NCBI GenBank assembly: GCA_963776285.1
Contig: CAVZLW010000006.1
Span: 38,188 to 102,187 of the forward strand
DNA: 64,000 nucleotides
Origin: an uncultured Chloroflexia bacterium
GTDB taxonomy: Bacteria > Chloroflexota > Limnocylindria > Limnocylindrales > CSP1-4
Direction of reading: 5' to 3'
Both the position numbers and the translations under genes were made by a program. Of this stretch, positions 2,250 to 47,757 are shown piece after piece (positions within the stretch are counted from its first letter, which is position 1; every line of letters starts with the position of its first letter). Under the pieces are notes generated by a model, which saw only the letters and a program-made list of their open reading frames with translations, was not told where the DNA came from and ran no database searches.

Positions 2250-2440
2250 ACGCGAGGTCCTACGTGACGAAGATCATGCCTGCCTGCCCCTTTCTCTCGA
2301 GGGTGTGAGCGGCTGCACCGTGGGGCCGGCGACCGGACTTCCGTCCCGGAGGGGACGGTCACCGTAGCGGGACTGTGCCGGATTTGCACCGGCTTCGCGA
2401 CCACGCGGTGGGTCTGGATGACCGGCGGAGCGTAGCACGA
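2250..2440 (-). promoter_or_regulatory. candidate cobalamin (AdoCbl) riboswitch in the 5' leader of the ABC importer operon
   Basis: The 510-bp leader on the minus strand contains GAAGCCGGUGCAAAUCCGGCACAGUCCCGCUACGGUGACCGUCCCCUCCGGGACGGAAGUCCGG (reverse complement of 2358..2396 and flanks). This matches the conserved cobalamin-riboswitch core (GGUGc.AAuCCGGc.c.GuCCCGC.ACuGUaA...GGGAAG.C). It is followed by a pyrimidine/GGGGCAGGCAGGC stretch and the start codon. Boundaries are approximate. Confidence 0.55.
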
Positions 2441-9937: not shown

Positions 9938-11125
9938 TCAGGCCTCGACAGCCTCCGGCAGCGCCAGGCCGCACGCGTCGGCGAGGAGGGCGGCCTTGTC
10001 GGTGCGCTCCCACGGCAGGTCGAGATCGGGGCGTCCGAAGTGCCCGTAGCTCGCGGTCTGGCGATAGATGGGGCGGAGCAGGTCGAGCGCCTCGATGATG
10101 CTCGCGGGGCGCAGGTCGAAATGGCCGTCGATCGCGGCGCGGATCCGGTCGTCCGGCACCCTCCCCGTCCCGAACGTCTCGATGGAGACGGAGAGAGGGT
10201 AGGCGATGCCGATCCCGTAGGCGACCTCGATCTCGAAGCGGTCGGCGAGACCGGCGGCCACGACGTTCTTGGCGACCCATCGCGCCGCATAGGCGGCGGA
10301 GCGATCCACCTTCGTCGGGTCCTTGCCCGAGAACGCGCCTCCCCCGTGGCGGGCCATCCCGCCGTACGTGTCGACGATGATCTTGCGCCCGGTGAGCCCG
10401 GCGTCGCCCATCGGCCCGCCGATGACGAAGCGTCCCGTCGGGTTGACGTGCATGACCGGATCGCTGGGACGCAGGGCGTGGGGGATCACCGGAAGGATCA
10501 CCGCCTCGACGAGGTCGTCGTGCAGGTGATCCGGCGCGTCGGCGTCGTGCTGGGCCGCGAGCACGACCGTCGTGACGCGGGCGGGACGGCCGTGCTCGTA
10601 CTCCACCGTGACCTGCGTCTTGCCATCGGGGCGCAGGTAGGGCAGCTGGCCCGACTTCCGCGCCTCGGCCAGCCGGCGCGCCATGCGGTGGGCCAGCGCG
10701 ATCGGCAGCGGCATCAGCTCCGGAGTCTCCCGGCAGGCGAAGCCGAACATCATCCCCTGGTCGCCGGCGCCCAGCTCGCGGGCGTCCACGCCGCGGGCGA
10801 TGTCGGGCGACTGCTCCTTGATGCTCACGAGGGCGCCGCAGGTCTGGTAGTCGAAGCCGTAGTCCGCGCGGGTGTAGCCGATCTCCTTGACGGTGTCCCG
10901 GACGACCGACTGGAAGTCCACGTAGACCGTCGTCGTGATCTCGCCGAGGACGGCGACGAGGCCGGTCGTCGTGGCGGTCTCGCAGGCGACCCGCGCGTCC
11001 GGGTCCTCGCGGATGATCGCGTCGAGGATGGCGTCCGAGATCTGGTCGCACATCTTGTCGGGGTGGCCCTCGGTCACCGACTCGGACGTGAACAGGTAGC
11101 TCGGGGCGTCGACGATGCTTGTCAT
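9938..11125 (-). CDS. metK: S-adenosylmethionine synthetase
   Basis: ORF 9938..11125 (395 aa) contains [29 protein letters not shown] and [28 protein letters not shown], which are hallmark MetK motifs. Confidence 0.97.
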
Positions 11126-17518: not shown

Positions 17519-18703
17519 TCAGGCCTCGCCGGGTGCGCCGGGGCGGTCCGGGTCGGCGCCGGAGCCACCGTCCGGCTCGGCGGTGACCGGCCCGGCCGCG
17601 CCCGGCCCGTCCGGGCCGGGCGAGCGGTCCGGCCGGCGCGCCTCGCGCGCCGCGATCGCGTCGGCGATGGCCGGACGGTAGGGATCCCGGAGCACGCCTG
17701 CCTCGGTGACGATCGCGGTGACCAGATCCGCCGGGGTGACGTCGAAGGACGGGTTGATCGCCGCGGCACCGGCCGGCGCGACGCGGCGCCCGGCGAACGA
17801 GGTGACCTCGCCTGCCGAGCGCATCTCCAGGCTGACCTGCGAGCCGTCCGCCGCCTCGGCATCGAGGGTCGCCGTCGGCGCCACGACGTAGAACGGCACG
17901 CCGTGGCGCGCGGCCAGGACCGCCAGCGGGTAGGTGCCGACCTTGTTCGCCGTGTCGCCGTTGGCCGCGATCCGGTCTGCTCCCACCAGGATCGCGTCGA
18001 CGTCGCCGGTGGCGAGCAGCCAGCCGGCCGCGGAATTGGCCAGCAGCGTGTACGGGATCCCGGCCTGGCCGAGCTCCCAGGCCGTGAGGCGGGCGCCCTG
18101 CAGCCAGGGCCGGGTCTCGTCCACGTAGACGTGGACCTCGCGGCCGTCGGCCGCGAGCGCCTGGACCACGCCCAGGGCCGTCCCGACCTGGCCGCAGGCG
18201 AGCGGCCCGGTGTTGCAGTGGGTGAGCAGGCGGATCGGCCTGCCCTCGGGGACGGGCAGCAGCCCCACGCCCAGGCGGGCCATCGTCGCGTGGTCGAGGG
18301 TCGCCTCGTCGATGATCGCCTCGGCCTCGGCGCGCAGGGCGGCGGCGATCGCCGGCCCGTCGTCGTGCAGCTCGCCCAGCTCGGCGTACCGCGCGAGCAT
18401 CCGGTTCGTCGCCCAGCGGACGGCGACGGCGGTCGGCCGCGCGTTGACCAGCGCGTTGGCCGAGCCGCGAAGGATCGCCCGGCGGGCGTACGGCTTCGTC
18501 AGCGTCGCGCGGCCGGCGGCGAGGGCCAGGCCGGCGGCGGCGACCTGGCCGAGGGCCGGGGCGCCGCGCACCACCATCTCGCGGATCGCCTGGGCCACGT
18601 CGCCCGCGGACTCGCAGGAGACCTCGACGAGCTCCTCGGGCAGGCGCCGCTGGTCCACCAGGATCAGCCGATCGCCCTCCAGGCGGAACGGGCTCCGGAA
18701 GAC
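17519..18703 (-). CDS. mtnA: S-methyl-5-thioribose-1-phosphate isomerase (eIF-2B alpha/beta/delta-like family)
   Basis: ORF 17519..18916. The coherent sequence begins at about FRSPFRLEGDRLILVDQRRLPEE (MtnA N-terminal signature), with later blocks VVRGAPALGQVAAAGLALAA and TLLANSAAGWLL. The start is approximate (GTG ~18703). Codons upstream of it are junk. Confidence 0.8.
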   Translation of the reverse strand, partial: VFRSPFRLEGDRLILVDQRRLPEELVEVSCESAGDVAQAIREMVVRGAPALGQVAAAGLALAAGRATLTKPYARRAILRGSANALVNARPTAVAVRWATNRMLARYAELGELHDDGPAIAAALRAEAEAIIDEATLDHATMARLGVGLLPVPEGRPIRLLTHCNTGPLACGQVGTALGVVQALAADGREVHVYVDETRPWLQGARLTAWELGQAGIPYTLLANSAAGWLLATGDVDAILVGADRIAANGDTANKVGTYPLAVLAARHGVPFYVVAPTATLDAEAADGSQVSLEMRSAGEVTSFAGRRVAPAGAAAINPSFDVTPADLVTAIVTEAGVLRDPYRPAIADAIAAREARRPDRSPGPDGPGAAGPVTAEPDGGSGADPDRPGAPGEA

Positions 18704-19053
18704 TCCCGGCGCAGGCGCCGCGGACGGGGCGGACCGCGTCGCGCCGGGGATCGCGGCGTCGCGGCCGGCGGTGACCGGGCCCGATGCTCGCGTCGGCGAA
18801 GACCGAGGTCGCCATCTCCTGGGTCGTGTCGCGAAGGGCTCCCGCCGCGCCAACCAGGGTGGCAGCGGTCCGCACGGCATCGCTGGCCATCGCCCGGAAG
18901 AAGCGTCGCCGGGCAAGGCGGAGGGCCTCGTCCGGATCCGGCGGTGCCGCCTCGGGCGACCCCGCCGTCGCGCTCGCGGCGGGCTCTGCGGGACGCTCCT
19001 GGTCGCTCATCGGACGGCGGACGGATCTCGGCGCAGGCGTGGCGTGGGCTCGA

Positions 19054-19655: not shown

Positions 19656-21143
19656 CTACCGCAGCGGGGCTCCGACCTGACCCTCGGGGCGCCGGCGCAG
19701 CCGTCCCGAGAGGGCAAGCCCCGCGACGCCGGCGACGGCGCCCGCGGCGAAGGCCGCCGCAACCCCGGCAGCCATGCGTCCGGGCTCCACGTCGCCGCCG
19801 GCGGACGCGCCCGCGATCACCGCCACGAGCGCGCCCCCGACCCCCGTCCCGGTCGCCGTCCCGACCACGTCCGAGAGCTGCAGGCCAGCCGTCGCGAATC
19901 CCTCCTCGCCGCTCCTCGCCTCCCGCAGCACGGTCAGCGACAGGGGTGCGTAGGCGAGGCCCATCCCGAGGCCGGCGATCCCCCAGCCGGCGATGCCGAC
20001 GACGAGCGGGACGGCGGGAGCCAGCACGGCGGCCGTGGTGCCGAGGCCCCCCAGCACCACGAGGAAGCCCACCCCGACGAACGTCCGGGCCCCGATCCGC
20101 CCGACGAAGCGGGCCTGGATCCAGGCCCCGCCGGTCCAGGCCAGCGTGGCGGCCGTGAAGGCGAGCCCGGCGACGGCCGCCGTGGTTCCCCGGACCACCA
20201 CGAGGGCCAGCGGCACGTACGCGTCGGCCGCGAAGAACGCGAACGTGAGCAGGCCGCGCAGCAGGACCGCGGCCGGGAGCACCGGACGGGCGACCAGGGT
20301 TCCCGGCGGTGTGAGGCGCCGGAACGCCGGCACCCCCACGGCGAGGCCGATCGCGAGGAGCGCGGCCGCGGCCGCCGGCGACTCGGCGAGCGCACCCAGC
20401 CCGGCGAGCGCGAGGCCGGCCCCCGCCGCCGTGGCGAGCGCCAGGGGAGCCCGGATGCGCAGGTCATCGGGGCGGCGCTCACCCTCGACGTCCCCGCGCG
20501 GCGGCTTCCGGGACGGCCCGGGAGACGGACCTGGCAGGTCAGCCAGGGGCGCGGCGGCGGCCGCCCGGCGATCCACGGCCGCGAGGGCGGGGATGGTGAT
20601 GGCGGCTGCGACGGCGATGAGGGGCAGGATGCCGAGGAAGATCCAGCGCCAGCCCAGGGCGTCCGCGACCAGGCCGGCAATCGCCGGGCCGACGAGCCCG
20701 GGGATGACCCAGGCCGTGGAGAGGACGGCGAACATGCGCGGCCGGAGAGCGTCGGGCAGCACGCGCCCGATCGCCACGTAGGCGACGGGCGGCTCGAAGC
20801 CGGCGCCGAGGCCCTGCAGGACCCGCGCCAGGACCAGGAGCGGCATCGACGGCGCCAGGCCCCCGAGAGCCAGCCCGGCCGCGAAGCAGGCGAGGCCGAA
20901 GGCCAGCGGGGGCGCCAGCCCGACCCCGCGATCGAGCAGCCCGCCCGAGATGACGATGCCGACGAGCGTGGCCAGGAAGAAGGCCGAGAAGACCCACCCG
21001 TAGAGCTCCAGGCCGCCGAGCTCGCGGGCCACGAGCGGCATCACCGTCCCGACGGCGAGCGCCTCGGAGGCGACCAGGGTGACGGTCAGGACCAGTCCGC
21101 CGGAGAGCGCACGTCGCTCGGGCGACCACAGCCCGCCGGTCAC
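19656..21143 (-). CDS. MFS transporter
   Basis: 495 aa with 12 or more hydrophobic segments and an MFS-type loop motif (GRVLPDALRPRMFAVLS). It is the last gene of the minus-strand glycerol cluster. Confidence 0.8.
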   Translation of the reverse strand: MTGGLWSPERRALSGGLVLTVTLVASEALAVGTVMPLVARELGGLELYGWVFSAFFLATLVGIVISGGLLDRGVGLAPPLAFGLACFAAGLALGGLAPSMPLLVLARVLQGLGAGFEPPVAYVAIGRVLPDALRPRMFAVLSTAWVIPGLVGPAIAGLVADALGWRWIFLGILPLIAVAAAITIPALAAVDRRAAAAAPLADLPGPSPGPSRKPPRGDVEGERRPDDLRIRAPLALATAAGAGLALAGLGALAESPAAAAALLAIGLAVGVPAFRRLTPPGTLVARPVLPAAVLLRGLLTFAFFAADAYVPLALVVVRGTTAAVAGLAFTAATLAWTGGAWIQARFVGRIGARTFVGVGFLVVLGGLGTTAAVLAPAVPLVVGIAGWGIAGLGMGLAYAPLSLTVLREARSGEEGFATAGLQLSDVVGTATGTGVGGALVAVIAGASAGGDVEPGRMAAGVAAAFAAGAVAGVAGLALSGRLRRRPEGQVGAPLR

Positions 21144-21779: not shown

Positions 21780-23989
21780 TCAGGCCCCGGAGCCGCCCTC
21801 CCCGGCCGCCCCGGCGATCCGCCCGAGGAGCGCGGACGCCAACGTCCGGACGGCCGTCGCGTCCCGCGCGACGAGCGCGGCGCCTGCCAGCTTGCGGAGC
21901 TCCGCGCTCGTGACGGCGGCCAGCGCCAGGCGCACTTCGTCGAGCGAGCCGGCGTCCGCAGACAGCTCGTCGACGCCCAGGCCGACGAGCACCAGGGCAC
22001 CTGCAGGGTCGCCGGCGAGCTCCCCGCACACGGCCACGGGGATGCCGGCGGCGTCGGCGCCGGCCACCACGCCCGCGATCGCCCGCAGCACGGCGGGATG
22101 GAGGGCGTCCTGGAAGCGACCCAACGTGGCGTTCCCGCGGTCCGCGGCCATCACGTACTGGGTCAGGTCGTTCGTGCCGATGCTGAAGAAGGCCACCCGC
22201 CGGGCCAGCTCCGGGGCAAGCAGCGCGGCGGCCGGGATCTCGACCATGATGCCGGTGACCATCGCCTCGGCGCAGACCTGGCCGGCCGCGAGGACCCCCG
22301 CACGGGCCTCGTCGCGCAGGGACTCCAGGAGGTCGACGTCGTCGAGAGTCGCGACCATGGGAGCCATGACGTGCGGTCGCACGCCGGCCAGCCCGCCGGC
22401 TCGCCAGATCGCCCGGAGCTGGGTCCGCAGGAGCTCGGGGTCGCCGTACGCCAGGCGGATCGCCCGCACGCCCAGGAAGGGGTTCGCCTCCGCCGGCAGG
22501 CCCAGGTAGGGGATCTCCTTGTCGCCCCCGATGTCGGCCAGCCGGACGACGACGGGGCGGTCCGGGCCGAATGCCTCGAACGCGCGCCGGTACGCGGCGA
22601 CCTGCTCGTCCTCGGTGGGCGGCACCTGGCGCCGCATGAAGAGGAACTCGGTCCGGAAGAGCCCGACGCCCTCGGCGCCGGCCTCGAGCGCCCGCGGCGC
22701 GTCGTCCGGATTGCCGATGTTCGCCACGAGGAGGACGCGGGCGCCGTCGGAGGTTGCCCCGGGCGCGGCCGCGCGCCGCGGCGGCCCTGGCGCGCCGCGC
22801 GGCGAGCGCCGCCGCGCGCTCGGCCAGGGCGGCCTTTCGCCCCGGCGTCCGGGTCGATGAGGACCTCGCCGGATTCGCCGTCGAGGGCGATCTCGACCGC
22901 GACTCCCGACGCGGCGGCGTCGTCGACCGCCTCCAAAAGCCCGGCGCACCCGACGACGCACGGGATGCCGAGCCCGCGGGCAAGGATCACCGCGTGCGCC
23001 GTCCGCGACCCGCCGGCGAGGGCGATGCCGCGCAGGAACGCGGCCGGGATCTCGGCCGTCACCGAGGGCGGCAGGTCGTCGGCGATCGCGACGACGGGGG
23101 CATCGGGGAGCGCCAGCGTCTCGCCGCGCAGGATCCGGGCGATCCGCGCGCCGACGTCCCGCACGTCCGCGGCGCGCGCCGCCAGCAGCTCGTCGCCGAG
23201 GCTGGCGATGGCGAGCGCCGCCTCCGATGCCGCGGCCGTGACGGCCGCGGCCGGGTCGGCTCCGGCCGTCACGCGCTCGAGAGCGTCGTCGACGATGGTC
23301 GGGTCGGTGGCCAGGACCGCCTGGGCCTCGAAGATCCCCGCGTCGTCGGGCCGTCCTGCTGCCCGGATGCGGGCTGCCAGCGCGTCGAGCTGGGCCTCGG
23401 CCTCCGCAGCTGCCGCGCGGATCGCGGTCGCGGGATCACCGGTTGCCGCGGCCGGCGCGGCGGACGGCTGCTCGCGATAGCGCCACGCCGGTGCCGTCGC
23501 GATGCCGGCGACGGCACCGTCCCCGCGAAGGCGGCGGGCGCCCGGATCCACCGCCGGGCCGGTCCCGGCCACGGCAGGCGACGGCGGCAGGGGCGGCCCG
23601 GGCTGGGCGGCAGAGGCCCCGGGGGCCGCAGGAACGGCAGCGGCCGACGGCGCCGCGGAGGCCGGCGACGCAGCAGGCGCTGCGGCGGCCTCGGGAGCCG
23701 CGGGACGCGGGGGGATCTCCTCGCCCAGGCCGGCCTCGATCGCCGCCCTGATGGAGGCGATCGCCTCCACCTCGTCCTCGCCCTGGGCCGTGATCCGGAC
23801 CACGTGGCCCATGCGCACGCCCAGCGGCTGGACCCTCAGCATCTGCTTCGCGTTGGCGGGACCCGCTCCCGTGGACAGGTTCTGGATCGTCACGTCCGAG
23901 CGGACCTTGCCGCAGGTCCGGACGAACTGGCCCAGCGGTCGCAGGTGGAGTCCGTTCGGGTTGCGGATCTCGATCTCGAGCGTCTGCAC
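21780..23989 (-). pseudogene. ptsI: HPr–Enzyme I fusion (ptsH-ptsI) gene, interrupted by two single-nucleotide frame changes
   Basis: Frame A (23989 down to ~22845) encodes an HPr domain (MQTLEIEIRNPNGLHLRPLGQFV…), an Ala/Pro linker, and the EI N-terminal and phospho-His domains (GGSRTAHAVILARGLGIPCVVGC). Frame C (about 22840..22760) encodes the EI linker helix RKAALAERAAALAARRARAAAARG. Frame B (22760..21780) encodes the PEP-utilising TIM barrel (LLVANIGNPDDA…GVGLFRTEFLFM…FFSIGTNDLTQY…CGELAGD). The switches occur at the C/G runs at 22840-22844 and 22757-22763. Confidence 0.75.
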
Positions 23990-24006: not shown

Positions 24007-25131
24007 TCAGGGCACGGGACGGCGAGGCTGGTCGGCCTCGGGGGCCGCCGGCGAGGCCGGACGACCGGCCTGGCCGGTAGCGAGGAGTGCGACGATGCGG
24101 GACGGCTCAGCCGCCAGGTCGGCGGCCAGGACCGGGTCGACGGTCGCCGCGTCGACGAGCGCGGCCAGGGCGGCATTGACCGGCGTCGCGACGCCGCACG
24201 CGATCCCGGCCCGGGCCACGGCCCCGTTGAGCCACGCGACCTCCGAGGGTCCCTCAGCTCCGCCCCGCAGGTGGAGCCGGAGGGACGGCGACTTTCCGCC
24301 GCGAGCCCCGCCGACCACCCGGCGCAGGGCGAACCGCGACAGCCGGCGCGGCAGGCGGATGCCGATGGCGAGGAGGGGCACGTTCGCTCCCGGGAGCCCA
24401 ACCGGCCGGATCTCCAGGGCGCGCATCACGGCGAGCGCCTCGAGCAGCTGGCGGCGCTCGACGTCGAAGAGCGCGGGGTCGGCGTAGAGGACCGCCGGGT
24501 CGCGGTCTGCGAGGGCGGAGAGCGCGTTGCCGACGAGATTGGCCAGCAGCTTCGACCACTTCATGGCCCGCGCATCGGAGATTCGCCGCGCCGGCAGGCC
24601 CGCCCCGCCGAAGTCGTCGACGAGCGCGGCCACCAGCCCGTCGACGTCCCCCGCGACACGGGCGAGGCCGATCCCGCCCCGGCCGCGCCACTCCACCTCC
24701 TGCGGGCGCGAGCGCTCGACCGGCGCGGTCAGCGAGCCGGCGACGTGGGCGATCCCCGGGCGGGCCGCCGCGACGAGGTCCTCCGCGCCGACGCCGTTCT
24801 GGATCGTCAGCACGGGAGCCGAGGGCCAGGCTCGCAGGTCGTCGAGGGCCCCGGCCAGGTCGAACGTCTTCACCGCGAGGACGACCAGGTCCGGGGACGC
24901 GGCGAGCTCGGCCGGGGTGCTCGCGCGGCGCACGCGTGCCACCACGCGACGGCCGTCCGGCTCGTGGACGACGATCTCGTCGCCCGCGTCGGGCACGCGC
25001 GGGTCCAGCAGGACGACCTCGGCGCCGGACGCGGCCAGGAGGCCTCCCAGCAGCGTCCCGACCGCGCCCGCCCCCAGCACGGCGACGCGCCGCGGCGCGC
25101 CGGGCAGGCCGGCCGCGGCGGTCGCGCTCAC
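24007..25131 (-). CDS. ketopantoate reductase (PanE/ApbA) family NAD(P)-dependent oxidoreductase
   Basis: It has the Rossmann motif VAVLGAGAVGTLLGGLLAASG, a catalytic Lys in VKTFDL, and KWSKLLANLVGNALSAL. The order and spacing of these match the PanE family. Its stop overlaps the dhaM start. Confidence 0.7.
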   Translation of the reverse strand: MSATAAAGLPGAPRRVAVLGAGAVGTLLGGLLAASGAEVVLLDPRVPDAGDEIVVHEPDGRRVVARVRRASTPAELAASPDLVVLAVKTFDLAGALDDLRAWPSAPVLTIQNGVGAEDLVAAARPGIAHVAGSLTAPVERSRPQEVEWRGRGGIGLARVAGDVDGLVAALVDDFGGAGLPARRISDARAMKWSKLLANLVGNALSALADRDPAVLYADPALFDVERRQLLEALAVMRALEIRPVGLPGANVPLLAIGIRLPRRLSRFALRRVVGGARGGKSPSLRLHLRGGAEGPSEVAWLNGAVARAGIACGVATPVNAALAALVDAATVDPVLAADLAAEPSRIVALLATGQAGRPASPAAPEADQPRRPVP

Positions 25132-25535
25132 TCCGGGATCTTGGGCAGGGTCGCGGCCTCCTCCGCCGCGGCGAGGACGGCGGCCAGGTCGTCGCCGCAG
25201 CTCGCCTGGACGGCGGCAACGACGGCGCCCTCCACCAGCGGCCCGCCCGACAGGCGGACCCGTGCCGCCGCCTGCTCCCCGAGGAGCTCCAGCGCCGTCT
25301 GGGTGGCCAGCACCGCGCTGCCCAGGTCGACGAGGACGAGGACGCCCGCCCCGGCGTCCGCGGCTGTGATCGCGGCCATGATGGCGGCGGCATCCGTTCC
25401 GAGCTGGCCGTCGGCGGTCCCGCCGGCGGCCTCGATGCGCAGGTCGTCGCCGGCCATCTGGCGGGCCAGCTCCACCGTCCCTGCCGCGATCTGCGCGGAG
25501 TGGCTGACGATGACGATCCCGACAAGCTCATCCAT
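25128..25535 (-). CDS. dhaM: PTS-dependent dihydroxyacetone kinase phosphotransferase subunit, EIIA(Man)-like domain only
   Basis: 135 aa. GIVIVSHSAQIAAGTVELARQM … GTDAAAIMAAI … LVLVDLGSAVLATQTALELLG … RVRLSGGPLVEG aligns closely to the E. coli DhaM N-terminal domain (phosphorylatable His in VSHS). It has no HPr or EI-like extension. Confidence 0.85.
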   Translation of the reverse strand: MDELVGIVIVSHSAQIAAGTVELARQMAGDDLRIEAAGGTADGQLGTDAAAIMAAITAADAGAGVLVLVDLGSAVLATQTALELLGEQAAARVRLSGGPLVEGAVVAAVQASCGDDLAAVLAAAEEAATLPKIPE

Positions 25536-25544
25536 GGCGGGTTC

Positions 25545-25937
25545 CTATGGCGCCGCGTTGATGATCGCCGCGAAGAGGACGACCCCGTAGACGACGGTGA
25601 TGATGCCGACGACCGACAGGACGTTCGTGATCCGCCGCTCCGTCCGCTCCGAGAAGCCGAAGTCGAACAGGATGGCCCGCACGCCCACCAGGGCGTGGTA
25701 CGTCACGAAGACCAGGAAGCAGACCTCGAGGACGATCACCACCGGGTTCCGCAGCCAGTCGATGACCTCCTGGTAGAAGCGCAGCCCGCTTGGCGCGACG
25801 AAGTGCTGGGCGATCATGTGCAGCCCCAGCAGGACGATCAGCGCGACGCCGCTGACGACCTGGCCCACGAAGACCGGCACGCCGCGCGAGCCGGCGGGGC
25901 GATCGGCCGGCCGTGGTTCGGTGGCCATCTCGCTCAC
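25545..25937 (-). CDS. succinate dehydrogenase-type hydrophobic membrane anchor subunit (SdhD-like)
   Basis: 130 aa with three predicted TM helices and a conserved His in HALVGV. It lies 3 nt downstream of the SdhC-like gene. Confidence 0.6.
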   Translation of the reverse strand: MSEMATEPRPADRPAGSRGVPVFVGQVVSGVALIVLLGLHMIAQHFVAPSGLRFYQEVIDWLRNPVVIVLEVCFLVFVTYHALVGVRAILFDFGFSERTERRITNVLSVVGIITVVYGVVLFAAIINAAP

Positions 25938-25940
25938 CTC

Positions 25941-26360
25941 CTACTCGCCCGCGAAGATCCGAAGCGCCCCGACGAGCGCCACGAAGGCCGCGATGACCAT
26001 GAACGCGATGAAGAGCGCCTTCTGCCGGCTCGCCACGAGCCCCAGCCCGACGAGACCGACGCGGATCCCGTTCAGGCCGTGGATCAGCATCCCCGTCAGG
26101 AGGAAGACATCGAGAAGGAGGAACGGGGGGCTGAGCGCGATGTTGACGAAGCTGTCCCAGGCGTTCGGCCCCTGGACCAGCATCGACAGGATCATCAGGT
26201 GGAGATAGAGGTAGACGACGAGGCCGAGCCCGGTGAGGCGGTTGAGGATGAAGGCCAGGCCACCGAGGCGACGGCCGCGCGGGTCGAACCAGCCGACGAT
26301 GCCCCGGCGACGCGCGGGGCCGGCTACGGGCCGCGGCCGCTCGACGGTCGTGCTCGCCAT
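25941..26360 (-). CDS. succinate dehydrogenase-type cytochrome b subunit (SdhC-like)
   Basis: 139 aa with three TM helices (…LAFILNRLTGLGLVVYLYLHLMILSM…LTGMLIHGLNGIRVG…), carrying candidate heme-ligating His residues. Its ATG overlaps the SdhB-like stop (TGATG). Confidence 0.6.
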   Translation of the reverse strand: MASTTVERPRPVAGPARRRGIVGWFDPRGRRLGGLAFILNRLTGLGLVVYLYLHLMILSMLVQGPNAWDSFVNIALSPPFLLLDVFLLTGMLIHGLNGIRVGLVGLGLVASRQKALFIAFMVIAAFVALVGALRIFAGE

Positions 26361-27106
26361 CAGCGGTTTCCTCCGAACGAGAAGAGGCGTCGCGCCCGGG
26401 CCGCGGCGGCCGACCGGCGGAGCCGCATGATCGCGGCTGCCGGGTCCACGCCGGACGGGCAGGCCTCGGAGCACTCCCAGGTCAGGTGACAGCGCCAGGC
26501 GGCCTGGTCGTCGTCCATCAGCCGGATGACGGGGCCCGGGTCGAGCCCGCGGGGCTCCTCGACCACGCGCCACGCCGCGGCGAGCGCGGCGGGGCCCACG
26601 TAGCGCGGGTCGCTGCCGGCCACCGGACAGGCGGAGAGACAGATCCCGCACTCGATGCAGTCCTCGTAGCGATCCAGCTCGTCGATCCCTTCCGCCTTCT
26701 CGGCGCCGGGGATCTTCTCCGAGGACCTGACCAGCGGCCGGCCGGCCTCGTCGAACTCGTCGAAGAAGACGTTCATGTCGACGACGAGGTCGGAGAGGAC
26801 CGGGATGTTGTCGAGCGGCTCGACGACGACCTCGGCGCCGGCCGGAACGGGCGTCACGCAGGCCAGGCCTTCCCGGCCATTCACCTGCATCCCGCACGTC
26901 CCGCACGAGGCGTGGAAGCAGGAATGCCGGAAGGTCAGGCTCGGGTCGAGCTCGCGGCGGATGGCCACGAGCGAGTCGAGGATGGTCGTGCGGGGCCCGA
27001 CGGCCACGTCGAAGGTGTCGTAGCGCAGCGCCGCGGGATCGTCGCCCTCCTTCCGGCGGGAGACGACGAAGCGGGTCGTGCGGAGGTCGGTCGCGCTGTC
27101 GGTCAT
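26360..27106 (-). CDS. succinate dehydrogenase/fumarate reductase-type iron-sulfur subunit (SdhB/FrdB family)
   Basis: The 2Fe-2S segment DPSLTFRHSCFHASCGTCGMQVNG…LAC…DLVVDM is followed by CIECGICLSACP ([4Fe-4S]), GPAALAAAWR, and CHLTWECSEACP ([3Fe-4S]). It is collinear with E. coli SdhB. Confidence 0.85.
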   Translation of the reverse strand: MTDSATDLRTTRFVVSRRKEGDDPAALRYDTFDVAVGPRTTILDSLVAIRRELDPSLTFRHSCFHASCGTCGMQVNGREGLACVTPVPAGAEVVVEPLDNIPVLSDLVVDMNVFFDEFDEAGRPLVRSSEKIPGAEKAEGIDELDRYEDCIECGICLSACPVAGSDPRYVGPAALAAAWRVVEEPRGLDPGPVIRLMDDDQAAWRCHLTWECSEACPSGVDPAAAIMRLRRSAAAARARRLFSFGGNR

Positions 27107-27116
27107 CGCTCCGCTC

Positions 27117-28304
27117 CTACGCCGCGTAGTACGCGGTGTGCGGAAGGGTCACGACCTCCCGCGTCTGGCACGGCGCCTCGACGCCGACCTTGCGACAGAT
27201 GACGTCGGCCGTCGTCTCGGCCATCGCGCGGAGGGTCGTCCCCTTGCCGCCGGAGATGGTCACGAAGCCCTCGACGCCGTCCGTCTCGCGGTGGTCGAAG
27301 CACTTGAAGGTCCGGCTGAGCTCGCGGCCGCTCTCGGCGTCCTTGGAGCCGATCAGCGGGCGGGCGGCCGACCAGGCGGCCCGTCGCTCCGCGTGGCGGA
27401 TCGCGGGGATCATGGTCGACCCCTCGACGTACATCCGCTCGACGTGGTCCTCGGGCACTCCCAGGTCGTCCGGATCGTCCACGACCCAGGAGCTGGTGCC
27501 GACAACGGAGAGGCCCCGCTGGGGCACCACGATGTCGCCGTCACCGGAGGGGTGCAGGCGGTTCACGACCATGTTGCACCAGCGGCCGCGGACGGCCAGC
27601 AGGACGCCGGGCGAGGGCCGGATGGGCACGTCGCAGCCGGCCATCACGGCGAGCTGCTCCGCCCATGGCCCGGTGGCATTCACGACGAGGTCGGCGCGGA
27701 TCTCCTCCTCGACGCCGTTCACGAGGTCGCGGACCCGGATCCCGGAGACGAGGTGGTCGGCCACCAGCATCTCGGTCACGGTGGTCCAGGGACGGACGAC
27801 CGCGCCTCCCGCCTTCGCGCTGGCGAAGAAGCGGAGGGGCATCCGCATCGCGTCCATCGTCGCGTCGGGGACCTGGACGGCCATCCTGACCTGGGGGTTC
27901 AGGTTCGGCTCCAGGCGCAGGGCCTCCTCGCGCGAGACCCGGCGCGCCGGGATGCCGCTGGCGAGGCAGGACTCGAAGAACAGGGGCTCGTAGGCCACGT
28001 CCTCGTCGGTGATGGCGACGAAGAGCCCGTCGTTCGCCTCGAAGGCGCCCGGGCAGACGCGGCCCAGGATCTGGCGCTCCTCGATGCACTCGACGGCGGA
28101 CTCGCGATCCTTGACCGCGTAGCGAGCTCCGGAGTGGAGCAGGCCGTGGTGGCGGCCGGTCGTCCCGGAGGTGATCTCGCCACGCTCCACGAGCGTCACG
28201 CGGAAGCCCCGGAGGACGAGGTCGTGGGCGAGCGCGCCGCCGGTGCCGCCGCCCCCCACGATCGCGACGTGGAAGGGCTGTCGGGGTAGTCGGGTGATGG
28301 TCAT
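27117..28304 (-). CDS. glpA: FAD-dependent glycerol-3-phosphate dehydrogenase, GlpA-type flavoprotein lacking the C-terminal BFD-like Fe-S domain
   Basis: The ATG at 28304 gives MTITRLPRQPFHVAIVGGGGTGGALAHDLVLRGFRVTLVERGEITSGTTGRHHGLLHSGARYAV, near-identical in pattern to the E. coli GlpA N-terminus. Similarity continues to ...FVTISGGKGTTLRAMAE...CRKVG. The 395-aa product corresponds to about the first 400 of E. coli GlpA's 542 residues. Confidence 0.85.
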   Translation of the reverse strand: MTITRLPRQPFHVAIVGGGGTGGALAHDLVLRGFRVTLVERGEITSGTTGRHHGLLHSGARYAVKDRESAVECIEERQILGRVCPGAFEANDGLFVAITDEDVAYEPLFFESCLASGIPARRVSREEALRLEPNLNPQVRMAVQVPDATMDAMRMPLRFFASAKAGGAVVRPWTTVTEMLVADHLVSGIRVRDLVNGVEEEIRADLVVNATGPWAEQLAVMAGCDVPIRPSPGVLLAVRGRWCNMVVNRLHPSGDGDIVVPQRGLSVVGTSSWVVDDPDDLGVPEDHVERMYVEGSTMIPAIRHAERRAAWSAARPLIGSKDAESGRELSRTFKCFDHRETDGVEGFVTISGGKGTTLRAMAETTADVICRKVGVEAPCQTREVVTLPHTAYYAA

Positions 28305-28373
28305 GTGCTGCGCTCCGCGCCCTGACAGGGAGATGCCCGGGCCCCGCGTGCGGGGCCCGGGCACCGGGAGGGT

Positions 28374-29911: not shown

Positions 29912-30544
29912 CTAGTGCCCGGCCCAGACCTCTGCGGCGGACCGCAGGAGGAGATGCGAGGACGTCGCGCCGGGATCCTGGTGCCCGGCCGACCGCTCGC
30001 CGAGGTAGCTCGCCCGGCCCTTGCGGGCGACGAGCGGCACCGTGGCGAGCATGCCCTGCTGTGCCCCGTCGGCCATCCGGGCCAGGGCGTCGCCGACGGT
30101 GGCGCCGTCGGCGATCGCGGCCCGGAGAGCGTCGCGGGCGGGGATGAGGGCATCGACCATCGTCTTGTCCCCGGGCTCGGCCTTCCCGATCCGGAGGACC
30201 CCGCCGAGACCGGCTTCGTAAGCCGTGGCGAATTCCTCCAGCGTGAGGGCTTCCTTCCCGGCGATGGCGCCTCCCATCTGCATGAAGAACATCCCGTAGA
30301 GCGGGCCGCTGGCGCCCCCGACCGTCGAGACGAGCGTGGTGCCGACGGTCTTGAGGGTGGCCCCGATGTCGGGGCCCGTCAGGCCGTCCAGCTTGCCGGC
30401 CACGGCGGTGAAGCCGCGGTCCATGTTGATCCCGTGATCGGCATCGCCGATCGCCGAGTCCAGGTCCGTGAGATACGCCTTGTTCTCCGTCACGACGGCG
30501 GCGAACCGGCGGATCCAGGCGAGGATGTCGTCGTGCGAGATCAT
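29912..30544 (-). CDS. dhaL: dihydroxyacetone kinase ADP-binding subunit
   Basis: It has [19 protein letters not shown] (Mg/ADP site), GGASGPLYG and [10 protein letters not shown]. It lies immediately downstream of dhaK. Confidence 0.9.
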
Positions 30545-30592: not shown

Positions 30593-31591
30593 TCACAGGC
30601 CCCAGCGGAGGCCCGGCGTGAGGACCGGTGCGTCCCAGTACTTCGTGAGCTCGTCATCGAGGCGGAGGAGGGTGATCGAGCAGCCCGCCATCTCCAGCGA
30701 GGTGATGTAGTCCCCGACCAGGTTCCGGGCGATCGTGATGCCGCGGCCGTCGAGGATCTTCTTGAGCTCGTTGAAGACGACGTACAGCTCGATGAGCGGC
30801 GTGCCGCCCATCCCGTTGACGAAGGCGAGGACCTTGTCGCCCCTCTGGAACGGAAGGTCGTCAAGGATCGGCGTGGCGAGCATCGCCGTGATCTCGGCGG
30901 CGGAGGCGATCTTCATCCGCGTCCGTCCCGGCTCGCCGTGGATCCCGACGCCGATCTCCATCTCGTCGTCGCCGAGCTCGAACGTCGGCTTGCCGGCCTG
31001 CGGGACGGTGCAGCTCGTGAGGGCCATGCCCATGGAGCGCACGTTGTCCTGGACCTTCTGGCAGAGCGCCGTGACGGTCGCCAGATCGGCGCCCGCCTCG
31101 GCGGCCGCGCCGACGATCTTCTCGGCGAGGACGGTCCCCCCGACGCCGCGGCGGCCCGCGGTGTAGAGCGAGTCCTTGACCGCGACGTCGTCCGCGATGA
31201 CGACGCTGGTGACCTCGATCCCCTCGGCCCGGGCCATCTCGGCCGCGAGCTCGAAGTTCATGATGTCGCCGGTGTAGTTCTTGACGATGTGCAGGACGCC
31301 GGCGCCGGCGTCGACCGCCTTGGTCGCGGCGAGCATCTGGTCCGGCACGGGCGAGGTGAAGACTGCGCCGGGGCAGGCTGCATCGAGCATGCCCATCCCG
31401 ACGAAGCCGCCGTGCATCGGCTCGTGGCCGGAGCCACCGCCCGAGATCACGCCGACCTTGCCGGCCCTGGGGGCGCCGGCGCGCACGACCACGTTGGGCT
31501 CGATGACCCGCACGAGGTCGCCGTGCGCCGCCACGACGCCCGCGAGAGCGTCGTCGACGACGGTTTCGGGAGCATTGATGAGCTTCTTCAT
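30593..31591 (-). CDS. dhaK: dihydroxyacetone kinase Dha-binding subunit
   Basis: 332 aa containing [25 protein letters not shown] (active-site His) and …NYTGDIMNF…. An SD GAGGA precedes the ATG. Confidence 0.93.
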
Positions 31592-44538: not shown

Positions 44539-45087
44539 TCAGCCCCGGCCGCCACCTCCACTGGCCCGCGCGTCGGTGGATCGGGCCGCCTGGCCCCCGG
44601 ATTCGCCCGCGTGGCCTGCGGCGTCGTGGGCGGCCAGGTCCGACCCGGCGAGCGCGGCGACGACGAGCCCCGACACGACCTTGCCGTCGGCCCGGCCGCG
44701 CGTGCGCGGGCCCAGCCAGCCCATGACCCTGCCGAGGTCGCGGGCGGAGGATGCGCCCGTCGCCGCGATCGCCTCGTCGACGAGCGACGAGAGCTCGGCA
44801 TCCGTCAGGGCCCGGGGCAGGAAGCCGGAGATGATCGCGATCTCCGCCTCCTCCCTGGTCGCGAGGTCTTCGCGCCCGCCCTGGCGAAAGGCCTGCACCG
44901 ATTCGCGGCGCATCTTGACCTCGCGGGCCAGGACGGTGAGAGTCTGGTCGTCGGTCAGGGTCGCGTGGTCCCGTTTCTCGATACCGTAGACGGCGCTCCA
45001 GACCATGCGCAGGGTGTCGCGGCGCAGCACGTCACCCGACCGCGTGGCGGCGGTCATCTCCTCGTGGAGTTGGTCACGGAGGGACAC
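44539..45087 (-). CDS. GatB/YqeY domain protein
   Basis: MSLRDQLHEEMTAATRSGDVLRRDTLRMVWSAVYGIEKRD is the YqeY family N-terminus. It has a C-terminal Gly/Ala-rich tail. Confidence 0.8.
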   Translation of the reverse strand: MSLRDQLHEEMTAATRSGDVLRRDTLRMVWSAVYGIEKRDHATLTDDQTLTVLAREVKMRRESVQAFRQGGREDLATREEAEIAIISGFLPRALTDAELSSLVDEAIAATGASSARDLGRVMGWLGPRTRGRADGKVVSGLVVAALAGSDLAAHDAAGHAGESGGQAARSTDARASGGGGRG

Positions 45088-45231
45088 CGGCGTGGCTCCT
45101 TCGCCGGGCGCGGCGTCCGCTGACGACGCGCCGGTGCGCTGGGGGCGTCCGGGGCCCGGGAACGGGCCGGGGAAGCAGGTGGACCGGCGAACGAAGAGGG
45201 GTGGTGCGCCCCTGGACGCCGGTCCCGGCGG

Positions 45232-45426
45232 CTAACCCTGCTGGCGGGTGGCCTTCTTGCGCTTGGCTTCCTTGCGCTTGCGCTTCACGCTGGGCTTCTC
45301 GTAGTGCTCGCGACGGCGAGCCTCTGCCAGGATGCCGGACTGCTGGATCTTCTTGTTGAAGCGACGCAGTGCGCTCTCGAAGGTCTCGTTCTCACCAACG
45401 CGGATCTCTGCCAATGCCGGGATCAC
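45232..45426 (-). CDS. rpsU: 30S ribosomal protein S21
   Basis: The GTG at 45426 is preceded by GGCGGAGGAG. The product (V)[57 protein letters not shown] is a canonical S21. The longer ORF upstream is not coding. Confidence 0.9.
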
Positions 45427-45620
45427 CTCCTCCGCCCTGGGTTCAAATCCCGCTGCCGCCGCCGGGCGAGGTCGGCAGGCGCGAACGCCCACCGACGCAC
45501 GGTTCCGTCGCGCGTCGGCGAGCCCGGCGGAGCATAGATCGGCGCCCCCGGGCGGTCAAACGTGCCAAAGGTCCCGGAAGCGGACTCCGCCGCGGCGGAC
45601 CGGCCACCGGCCAGGCCGTC

Positions 45621-45947
45621 TCAGGCGCCGGAGGGAAGCAGGTAGAGCGCCAATCGCAGCGGTGTCCGGGCCCGGATCGAATGGGGCATCCGCGCCGGCA
45701 TCCGGAACCACGTCCCGGGAGCCAGCACGTGAGGTTCGCCGCCGACCACGGAGTCGCCGTCACCGTCGAGCACGTGGACGACCGCGGCGCGGGCAGCGGC
45801 ATGCTCCGACAGCTCCTCGCCCGCGGCGAGGGCGAACAGGACGAGCCGCAGGTCGGGGCCGTCGTAGAGCGTCTGGCTGTGGATCCCCCGGAGCAGCGGC
45901 GGCGCCTCCGCGGCAAGGTCGGCGAAGAACAGCGCTGGCTCGGACAT
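45621..45947 (-). CDS. cupin domain protein
   Basis: The ATG at 45947 gives MSEPALFFADLAAE…GEELSEHAAARAAVVHVLDGDGDSVVGGEPHVLAPGTWFRMPARMPHS, which are cupin motifs. Confidence 0.6.
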   Translation of the reverse strand: MSEPALFFADLAAEAPPLLRGIHSQTLYDGPDLRLVLFALAAGEELSEHAAARAAVVHVLDGDGDSVVGGEPHVLAPGTWFRMPARMPHSIRARTPLRLALYLLPSGA

Positions 45948-46062
45948 GTGGACACCTCCGGCGCGAACGGTACGCCGAAGGACGTGCCCGGACCCCGGCG
46001 TGGCACGGGCGCCCCGCGGGATGACAGTTGCGCGGCCACCGATCGCCCGCCACGATGCCGCA

Positions 46063-47757
46063 ATGGACGAGCCACGACGCACCCTGGTCGACCTCCTCGT
46101 CGGGGCGGCGGCACGCTTCGGCGACCGGACCGCCCTGCGCCTGCGGCGCGACGACGGCTCGACCCAGGCATGGAGCTACCGGGAGCTGGACCGTCGCAGC
46201 CGGCTGGCTGCGTGGCGGCTCCGGTCCCGCGGGCTGCAGCCGGGAGACCGGCTGCTGACCTGGTCGCCCTCGTGCCCCGAGCTGGCGGCCGTCTACTTCG
46301 GCGCGATGCGAGCCGGCCTGATCCTCGTGCCCCTCGATCTGCGGATGGCGCCCGACGCGATCCGGCGCATCGCCGACCGCTCGGAGGCGCGCCTGCTGGT
46401 GATCGGGACCGGGCGCGAGGCGCCGGACCCGGCCGAGGCCGATCTCGACCACCTTCCGATCGCCACGACCGACGACCTGTGCGCCGATCCGGGCGCCGGC
46501 TTCCCCGCCGACTGGGAGGCGCGCGTCGCGGCCTGGACGCTGCCCGCGCGGGACGATGTCTACCTGCTCGTGTACACGTCGGGCACCACCGGCGTCCCGA
46601 AGGGCGTGATGCTCTCGCACGGCAACACGATCGCCGGCGTGGACGGCTTCCACCAGATCGTCCCGGACATCGAGTACCGGATCGTCTCGCTGCTGCCGAT
46701 GTCGCACCTGTTCGAGCAGGCGATCGGGCTCTACCTCACGCTCGACCTCGGCGCGGACATCCTGTACGTGCGGACGCTCAACCCGCGGGTCCTCCTCGAA
46801 GCGATGCGCGAGCATCGGATGACCGGCATGATCGTCGTCCCGCAGATCCTCGACCTGATGTGGAGCAACGTCGAGCGGGAGGTCGAGCGACAGGGCCGGA
46901 CCGCGACATTCCTGCGTGCCCGGGCCATCGCCCGGCGGCTGCCGATGGCGGCCCGGCGCCGCATCTTCAAGGGCAGCGTCCATGCGAGGTTCGGCGGCCA
47001 CCTGCGTCTCTTCGTGTCGGCCGGCGCCTTCCTCCCGCCGGCCCTGCAGCAGGCCTGGGAGGACATCGGCGTCGTCGTGATGCAGGGCTACGGCGCGACG
47101 GAGACGGGCTCGGGGGCGGCCACCACCTGGCGGGAGCACCCGCTCGGCACGGTGGGCCGGCCGATCCCGGGCGTCGAGATGCGGATCGCCGACGACGGCG
47201 AGGTTCAGTTCCGCGGCCCCACGGTCACCCGCGGATACTGGGAGGACCCCGGCGCGACGGCTGCCGCGTTCACCGAGGACGGCTTCTATCGCTCCGGCGA
47301 CCTCGGCCACCTCGACGCCAAGGGACGCCTCGTCCTCCACGGCCGGAAGAGGGACATGATCGTCCTGCCGAACGGCCTCAACGTCTTCCCGGAGGACATC
47401 GAGAACGCCCTGCGCGTCGCCGGCATCCGCGACTCGGTCGTCGTGGAGACGCAGCCGGGCCGGATCGAGGCGGTCGTCCTGGCGCCGGTGACCCAGGCGC
47501 GCATGCCGGCGGGCGGCACGGCCGTGGCGGAGACGGGCGCCTTCAATGGCGGAACGGACCTCGCGCTCGTCCGGGCGCAGGTCGATGCCGCGGTGAAGGC
47601 TGCGAATGCGACCCTGAGGGTGGAGTCCCGGGTCGGTGCCTGGCGCTTCTGGCCCGACGTCGACTTCCCACGGACGCACACCATGAAGGTGAAGCGCGAC
47701 CAGGTGCGCGCCTGGGCGACGGTCGCCGCGCCGCTCCCGGTGACCGAGGGCCCCTGA
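46063..47757 (+). CDS. AMP-dependent synthetase/ligase (acyl-CoA synthetase family)
   Basis: It has the AMP-binding motif YTSGTTGVPKGVMLSH, plus GYGATETG, YRSGDLG and a C-terminal K (…THTMKVKRD). The start is ATG 46063 or 46021. Confidence 0.85.
   Translation: MDEPRRTLVDLLVGAAARFGDRTALRLRRDDGSTQAWSYRELDRRSRLAAWRLRSRGLQPGDRLLTWSPSCPELAAVYFGAMRAGLILVPLDLRMAPDAIRRIADRSEARLLVIGTGREAPDPAEADLDHLPIATTDDLCADPGAGFPADWEARVAAWTLPARDDVYLLVYTSGTTGVPKGVMLSHGNTIAGVDGFHQIVPDIEYRIVSLLPMSHLFEQAIGLYLTLDLGADILYVRTLNPRVLLEAMREHRMTGMIVVPQILDLMWSNVEREVERQGRTATFLRARAIARRLPMAARRRIFKGSVHARFGGHLRLFVSAGAFLPPALQQAWEDIGVVVMQGYGATETGSGAATTWREHPLGTVGRPIPGVEMRIADDGEVQFRGPTVTRGYWEDPGATAAAFTEDGFYRSGDLGHLDAKGRLVLHGRKRDMIVLPNGLNVFPEDIENALRVAGIRDSVVVETQPGRIEAVVLAPVTQARMPAGGTAVAETGAFNGGTDLALVRAQVDAAVKAANATLRVESRVGAWRFWPDVDFPRTHTMKVKRDQVRAWATVAAPLPVTEGP

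Follow-up and report, generated by a model that had tools for sequence, protein, structure and literature searches.

The window, by which we mean the whole stretch of DNA analysed here (64,000 nucleotides), contains a locus in which, in coding-strand order, an EIIA(Man)-like gene with a second DhaL gene is followed by genes for a GlpF-like MIP, DhaK, DhaL and GlpK, then by an FAD-dependent G3P dehydrogenase with an SdhB-like Fe-S subunit and two Sdh_cyt-like membrane subunits, and finally by a DhaM EIIA domain, an ApbA/PanE-like reductase, an HPr-Enzyme I (HPr-EI) fusion and PlsY. The locus is syntenic with that of relatives. DhaK, both copies of DhaL (TIGR02365, 239.3 and 195.5 bits, each exceeding the cut-off) and DhaM stand together in the window, each in a single frame, and GlpF and GlpK are likewise intact, which bears out the DhaKLM context given in a preliminary description of this DNA. 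The components of the kinase lie at the following positions:

30596-31591, minus strand: DhaK, intact (TIGR02363, 491.7 bits, exceeding the cut-off)
29918-30544, minus strand: DhaL, intact (TIGR02365)
25128..25535, minus strand: DhaM EIIA-type phosphoryl donor domain, intact (TIGR02364, 134.7 bits, exceeding the cut-off)

Synteny and the intact DhaK, DhaL and DhaM genes together point to the HPr-EI gene as the predicted PEP-dependent phosphoryl donor of a DhaKLM-type dihydroxyacetone (Dha) kinase. In this family, phosphoryl groups are relayed from PEP to the EI histidine, HPr-His15, DhaM, DhaL·ADP and finally DhaK-bound Dha. The window lineage also carries a private 1.44-kb MFS gene insertion at 19692-21130, and the region has thus been rearranged in this lineage.

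The HPr-EI gene (ptsI) runs along the minus strand from 23989 to 21780, and its successive parts occupy three different reading frames, labelled A, B and C in order of translation:

21780..23989, minus strand: whole HPr-Enzyme I (multiphosphoryl transfer protein) gene, with its stop codon at 21780-21782
23735..23977, minus strand: HPr domain (PF00381, residues 5-85), frame A, from a profile match and direct reading of the sequence
23349..23713, minus strand: Pro/Ala-rich low-complexity linker from HPr to EI, frame A, from alignments and a codon-position HMM
22868..23527, minus strand: EI N-terminal HPr-binding domain (PF05524) and phospho-His swivel domain (PF00391) with the motif GGSRTAHAVILARGLGIP, frame A
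22765..22834, minus strand: EI linker helix AALAERAAALAARRARAAAARGR, frame B, from three-frame translation, ortholog alignment and the HMM
21780..22763, minus strand: EI PEP-binding barrel (PF02896) with the CGELAGD motif, frame C, up to the stop codon

Translation starts at a GTG codon (23989) with a Shine-Dalgarno sequence, GGGAGGAG, just before it. Read directly from the sequence, the HPr active-site His15 lies within NGLHLRP, and the position equivalent to HPr Ser46 is occupied by Gln. All frame A domains fall within a single open reading frame (22163..23989, minus strand), including PF05524, matched over its full profile (1-121, E 2.4e-12), and PF00391 (E 4e-14). PF02896 falls within another (21780..22961, minus strand), where its match in frame C (E 1.1e-96) begins at profile position 10, near 22766. 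When positions 22990-22640 were translated in all three minus frames, a further piece (...RKAALAERAAALAARRARAAAARGR...) became visible in the third frame, and AALAERAAALAARRARAAAARGR agrees residue for residue, without gaps, with the orthologous linker helix of 45 intact orthologs. These matches confirm both the identity of the HPr-EI fusion, with its PF00381, PF05524, PF00391 and PF02896 domains, and its split over three frames, as the preliminary description had proposed from the letters of the sequence.

Codon usage tells the same story. A seven-state codon-position HMM, trained on 18 neighbouring genes and run over the whole window, placed segment borders within the gene at 22749/22750 and 22835/22836, enclosing a middle segment of 86 nt that is read in the third frame. 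Across 22720-22930, the codon position of highest GC content (position 3) shifts from window phase 2 to phase 0. Together, the HMM segmentation, the phase shift in codon-position-3 GC and the translations establish that the three-frame anatomy is real and no chance product of open frames in 74%-GC DNA. As assembled, the gene therefore has no uninterrupted full-length reading frame above the curated TIGR01417 cut-off, being split at 22835-37 and at 22764.

To locate the breaks at single-base resolution, the syntenic DNA of seven relatives (L001, L002, L003, L004, L007, L009 and L027; 81-87% nucleotide identity) was aligned with the window. In this alignment, the window gene carries exactly two 1-nt insertions that are private to it:

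22835..22837, minus strand: insertion 1, an extra A in GCGAA[A]GGC (ttt on the plus strand), absent in 7/7 relatives
22764, minus strand: insertion 2, an extra G in GGCCGC[G]CCCGG (c on the plus strand), absent in 7/7 relatives

At the first site, L001, L002 and L007 read GCG-AAGGC where the window reads GCGAAAGGC; the gap is present in all seven relatives, with flanking bases that differ in L003, L004, L009 and L027. At the second, L001 and L002 read GGCCGC-CCCGG (GGCCGCCCCGG) against GGCCGCGCCCGG in the window, and G22764 interrupts a coding-strand C4 run found in L001, L002, L003, L004, L009 and L027. Only insertion 1 is thus a change in homopolymer length (A2 to A3), insertion 2 breaking up a run. 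Aligned pairwise with L001 and L002, the window gene shows no other gap outside the Pro/Ala linker, whose length differs between relatives, and the gaps there all span a multiple of three bases. The frame steps from 1 to 0 to 2, a net change of +2, and the insertions do not compensate one another. They lie 73 nt apart and flank the GC maximum of the gene (92.5% over the 80 bases at 22740-22819).

The two 1-nt indels of the preliminary description accordingly stand, but their location does not: it had placed them in C/G runs (22840-43 and 22757-60) that lie 3-4 nt away. Instead of changes in the length of such runs, the seven-relative alignment reveals AA becoming AAA at the A-run 22835-22837 and a G inserted between C's at 22764. 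Indels inside the G4/C4 runs were considered and rejected on parsimony, as removal of a G from either run needs extra substitutions. The junctions left by such removal, DAGRK and RGRARAT, are unlike any ortholog, whereas removal of A22837 and G22764 yields DAGAK and RGRPGAT, as in orthologs.

Conceptual removal of A22837 and G22764 gives a product of 735 aa with no in-frame stops, which aligns without gaps to 45 orthologs across the linker region examined. The repaired protein matches TIGR01417 (PTS_I_fam) in one stretch (3-563/565, 447.7 bits against a cut-off of 341.7) and the HPr model TIGR01003 with 57.2 bits (cut-off 47.9), and its alignment to the EI crystal structure 2hro is continuous (351.7 bits). 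Within that alignment, the His motif GGSRTAH (GGSRTAHAVILARGLGIP) is paired with GGRTSHSAIMSRSLEIP of 2hro and CGELAGD with CGEMAGD, and the cysteine motif of the PEP-binding barrel is present. A protein search with the repaired product returned more than 2,600 relatives, among them 45 four-domain HPr-EI fusions of 715-757 aa and 75-88% identity from Limnocylindria/Chloroflexota metagenomes. That search gave no match above 88% identity and no near-identical fragments; the genome contigs scanned held no same-species assembly, the closest relative having 87% nucleotide identity, and the metagenome contigs scanned held no same-species sequence, the best match having 85% amino-acid identity. Exact look-ups of two window proteins in the protein collection likewise gave no match.

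We next asked how the part of the gene downstream of both shifts has evolved. Over its 298 codons, private substitutions number 7 at codon position 1, 5 at position 2 and 31 at position 3, and 10 codons carry amino-acid-changing differences as against 29 with synonymous differences only; the corresponding ratios of changing to synonymous codons in four intact orthologs are 6/21, 13/24, 17/44 and 22/42. Neither relaxed selection nor further decay was found in these 298 codons, which contain no stops and no deletions. Since the substitution pattern is that of intact orthologs, the part that would stay untranslated in the gene as assembled has experienced normal purifying selection along practically its entire terminal branch.

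A further frameshift lies two genes downstream of HPr-EI, ~4 kb away, in a gene that resembles mtnA:

18700..18789, minus strand: net +1 frameshift in the variable linker of the mtnA-like gene, from anchor spacing compared with relatives

The conserved N-terminal extension of this gene (…EALRLARRRFFRAMASDAVRTAATLVGAAGAL…) and its isomerase body (…FRSPFRLEGDRLILVDQ…) lie in different frames, and the distance from EALRLARRRFF to FRSPFRL is 229 nt in the window (1 mod 3) compared with 210, 201, 213 and 207 nt in four relatives. This shift, unmentioned in the preliminary description, bears directly on whether the lesions are errors or marks of a pseudogene. It was found by tblastn and had escaped the HMM because it sits in a low-complexity stretch. 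With two switching penalties, the codon-position HMM detected no further frameshifts across the 64 kb; only ptsI was flagged robustly, the extra short segments at low penalty being gene-end noise. Rfam and tRNA scans likewise returned nothing of relevance to the ptsI frameshifts.

All three window events are net +1 when read as single-base insertions, and they span 4.1 kb around the private MFS-gene insertion. By our own estimate, the chance of three random events falling so close together in 64 kb is ~1%. Such clustering, together with the GC maximum between the two ptsI insertions, would fit a locally poor consensus, for which difficult sequence, low depth or strain mixtures might be responsible.

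Sister assemblies provide a direct view of comparable lesions. Across ~10.2 kb comprising eleven conserved genes, we counted private frameshift-type indels and found none in L001, L002 and L003, 2 in the window, 5 in L007 and 17 in L027. Of the 22 indels in L007 and L027, 19 add a single G, C or A, in many cases without extending a homopolymer. They fall in AdoHcyase, GlpK, G3P dehydrogenase and APRT, with translations 87-98% identical to orthologs at the amino-acid level, and both assemblies have private shifts of their own elsewhere in the HPr-EI gene. Because they are for the most part 1-nt insertions in conserved genes that are otherwise 87-98% identical, these lesions, as judged from the alignments, cannot have a biological origin.

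The named relatives (MFD…bin…) come from the long-read catalogue of Microflora Danica, whose MAGs were built from Nanopore reads only, using Flye and one round of Medaka (PMC12313526). Its authors looked for Nanopore-associated errors among these MAGs and noted that coding density was low in a few of them with lower coverage (PMC12313526). In the literature, insertions and deletions of this kind are said to derive from homopolymer regions and to call for short-read polishing (PMC9262707, PMC12313526). The window gene shares with the Nanopore-only indel errors of L007 and L027 the presence of single-base lesions that break otherwise perfectly conserved ORFs. In contrast to the homopolymer-derived errors of the literature, the events in the window and in the sister MAGs consist almost entirely of insertions, with no change of homopolymer length in many cases.

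Collectively, the private nature of the insertions, the absence of decay, the lesions in sister assemblies, the third +1 shift and the intact pathway favour consensus insertion errors of a long-read assembly, rather than biology, as the probable source of the two ptsI bases, and further support comes from the match between three net +1 events and the insertion bias of the sister assemblies and from the position of the two ptsI insertions on either side of the GC maximum. The gene would then be an ordinary, functional HPr-Enzyme I fusion into which two spurious single bases, an A at 22835-22837 and a G at 22764, had been introduced as residual consensus error in a long-read (Nanopore-type) metagenome assembly made without short-read polishing; the window would stem from such an assembly, and the two bases would be absent from the real DNA. 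Several observations pull the other way. Compared with L007 or L027 the window is much cleaner and gives no sign of an assembly that is noisy throughout; two broken genes out of ~55 are within the range of real pseudogene frequencies; and insertion 2 does not change the length of a homopolymer. The preliminary description had offered assembly error and pseudogene as alternatives, and the evidence favours the former while leaving the latter a minor but appreciable share of the probability. A true and very recent pseudogene, in which two real 1-nt insertions inactivated the organism's only EI-HPr, is on balance unlikely, as is its corollary that the DhaKLM kinase lacks a phosphoryl donor and glycerol is used via GlpK and G3P dehydrogenase only. 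The lesions do stand in the sequence as given, the remainder of the window is clean and its assembly not obviously error-prone, the parallel ATP-dependent route encoded in the locus (GlpK and G3P dehydrogenase) could make the loss tolerable, and the private MFS insertion (19692-21130) attests to rearrangement of the region in this lineage. Against this, selection is not relaxed downstream of the shifts, there is no other lesion, stop or deletion, DhaK, DhaL and DhaM are intact, and neither lesion is shared by any relative. It is also unlikely that a 2.2-kb gene that is otherwise pristine acquired two insertions 73 nt apart through separate recent mutations. All three window events are insertions, as are most of the artefacts in the sister assemblies, whereas among real bacterial indels deletions usually predominate. 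Should all three insertions be real, the one in the mtnA-like gene included, a Limnocylindria soil lineage would very recently have lost its only EI-HPr donor, a scenario we regard as improbable. It would capture a first-step snapshot of PTS/Dha-kinase decay, with DhaK, DhaL and DhaM still kept, possibly tied to the insertion of the MFS gene.

Two further explanations would preserve a function for the gene as assembled. It is highly improbable that the gene has been naturally truncated to a DhaM-like HPr-EI(N) protein with a dispensable EI-C part, a reading suggested by a partial match to NF008478 and by E. coli DhaM, which has a truncated EI N-terminal domain and no PEP-binding barrel. EI-C is under purifying selection equal to that of intact orthologs, frame A has no stop at the shift and continues through ~220 nonsense residues to 22163, and no second EI occurs within the window. 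A functional split into separate HPr-EI(N) and EI-C proteins was rejected on similar grounds, namely the missing frame A stop at the junction and the selection on EI-C. Programmed recoding, by which one protein would be made through two +1 ribosomal frameshifts or transcriptional slippage, verges on the inconceivable; the sole point in its favour is that each of the three frames is open and well conserved. Its sites are not conserved, the seven relatives and 45 orthologous proteins being single-frame there, and GCGAAAGGC and CGCGCCCGG contain no obvious slippery motif or stimulatory stop or rare codon by eye. An A3 run does not reach the length needed for slippage, and a pair of such sites within 73 nt would have no precedent. 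Nor does the local sequence fold better than its shuffled versions (z = -1.6), which leaves no significant stable hairpin there, whether as cause of the lesions or as recoding signal. Recoding was rejected on the lack of site conservation, of a slippery motif by eye and of a fold distinguishable from shuffles.

Consensus error, the reading we prefer, matters mainly for annotation quality. Gene callers will produce an HPr-EI(N) protein of 608 aa that ends in a nonsense tail, along with a separate EI-C fragment, and metabolic reconstructions based on these frameshifted calls would then count the PEP-dependent dihydroxyacetone kinase as incomplete. In high-GC Chloroflexota long-read MAGs of this family, residual errors are mostly single-base insertions and extend beyond homopolymers, and such MAGs therefore need frameshift-aware annotation or short-read polishing before any gene is called a pseudogene. 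If the lesions are real, PEP-dependent Dha phosphorylation would be disabled unless another EI/HPr is encoded elsewhere, and the gene would be an unremarkable recent pseudogene.

The underlying gene type is ordinary and already well known, with nothing new about it. Like the HPr-fused PtsI proteins annotated as 'multiphosphoryl transfer protein' or 'FPr' (P0001-P0045), the window gene has the four-domain architecture PF00381, PF05524, PF00391 and PF02896, with 80-88% amino-acid identity to them, and it shares with these HPr-EI genes of Limnocylindria/Chloroflexota MAGs the gene order DhaM, ApbA-like reductase, HPr-EI and PlsY. It differs from them in being spread over three frames through two extra bases, whereas P0001-P0045 are each encoded in a single frame. 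More distant relatives (P0072-P0095) combine PF03610, HPr and EI all in one protein. With the E. coli-type DhaKLM system the window shares DhaK, DhaL and an EIIA(Man)-type domain of DhaM, each above the NCBIfam cut-offs. In E. coli, however, DhaM is an EIIA-HPr-EI(N-terminal fragment) protein served by the general EI and HPr, whereas the window encodes the EIIA domain as a protein of its own (135 aa) and HPr in fusion with a complete EI.

The window's three frameshifts, two in the gene encoding the HPr-Enzyme I (EI) fusion and one in an mtnA-like gene, are grouped around an inserted transporter gene that lies between them:

19692-21130 (ORF 19656..21143), minus strand: DHA2-like MFS transporter gene, with a weak TIGR00711 match
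19010..17519, minus strand: mtnA-like gene (S-methyl-5-thioribose-1-phosphate isomerase, TIGR00512)

The MFS transporter gene is an insertion between PlsY and APRT: direct DNA comparison revealed that L007, a syntenic relative, does not carry it, and the PlsY-APRT gap in a second relative, L001, spans only 159 nt.

Frameshifts caused by 1-nt insertions were also abundant across the whole loci of L007 (MFD05942.bin.2.132) and a further relative, L027 (MFD02134.bin.2.86), both of which are public species-representative MAGs. Per ~10 kb of conserved genes, we counted at least 5 such events in L007 and at least 17 in L027, with AdoHcyase, GlpK and glycerol-3-phosphate (G3P) dehydrogenase among the genes struck. 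Because conserved genes are affected in this way, protein predictions from both MAGs are unreliable.

Two features occupy the stretch upstream of the fusion gene:

25545-28364, minus strand: FAD-dependent G3P dehydrogenase, then an Fe-S subunit resembling SdhB and two membrane subunits resembling Sdh_cyt
24007-25131, minus strand: ApbA/PanE-family reductase, between DhaM (the EIIA-type phosphoryl donor domain of the DhaKLM dihydroxyacetone kinase) and HPr-EI

The first set, which is kept in five relatives (L001, L002, L004, L007 and L027), appears to be a G3P:quinone oxidoreductase whose partner subunits are similar to those of succinate dehydrogenase. The reductase gene overlaps the DhaM stop by 4 nt, and the DhaM-reductase-HPr-EI arrangement is common to the relatives.

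The fusion itself may differ in L004 (MFD00905.bin.2.8; 10001-10300 and ~11100), where the first ORF stops at 94 aa, the EI portion, as matched by tblastn, begins in another frame, and the interdomain linker is ~236 nt shorter in the alignment; together, these features suggest that this relative may encode HPr and EI in two distinct genes. A private insertion of 35/36 nt, made up of repeated CGTGGTCCCTGCGGCGAC-type sequence, is also present in the EI region of L004.

Elsewhere in the window, the gene at ~1134-2273 has a riboswitch upstream:

2277-2423, minus strand: AdoCbl (B12) riboswitch (RF01482, 53.7 bits versus a gathering score of 50)

The 1.2-kb interval at 45069-46277 (73% GC) yielded no codon-position signal in the frame-tracking HMM and no Rfam or tRNA match.

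Finally, the mtnA-like gene occupies a single frame in the relatives, and in the window a net +1 frameshift at 18700-18789 separates its conserved N-terminal extension from the isomerase body. This extension of ~100 aa is conserved in the clade's MtnA homologues (window 18790-19010, minus strand; L001 13567-13800; L002) and contains a twin-arginine-like motif, LARRRFFRAMASDAVRTAATLVGAAGAL. Such an extension is unexpected on MtnA, a cytoplasmic salvage enzyme.
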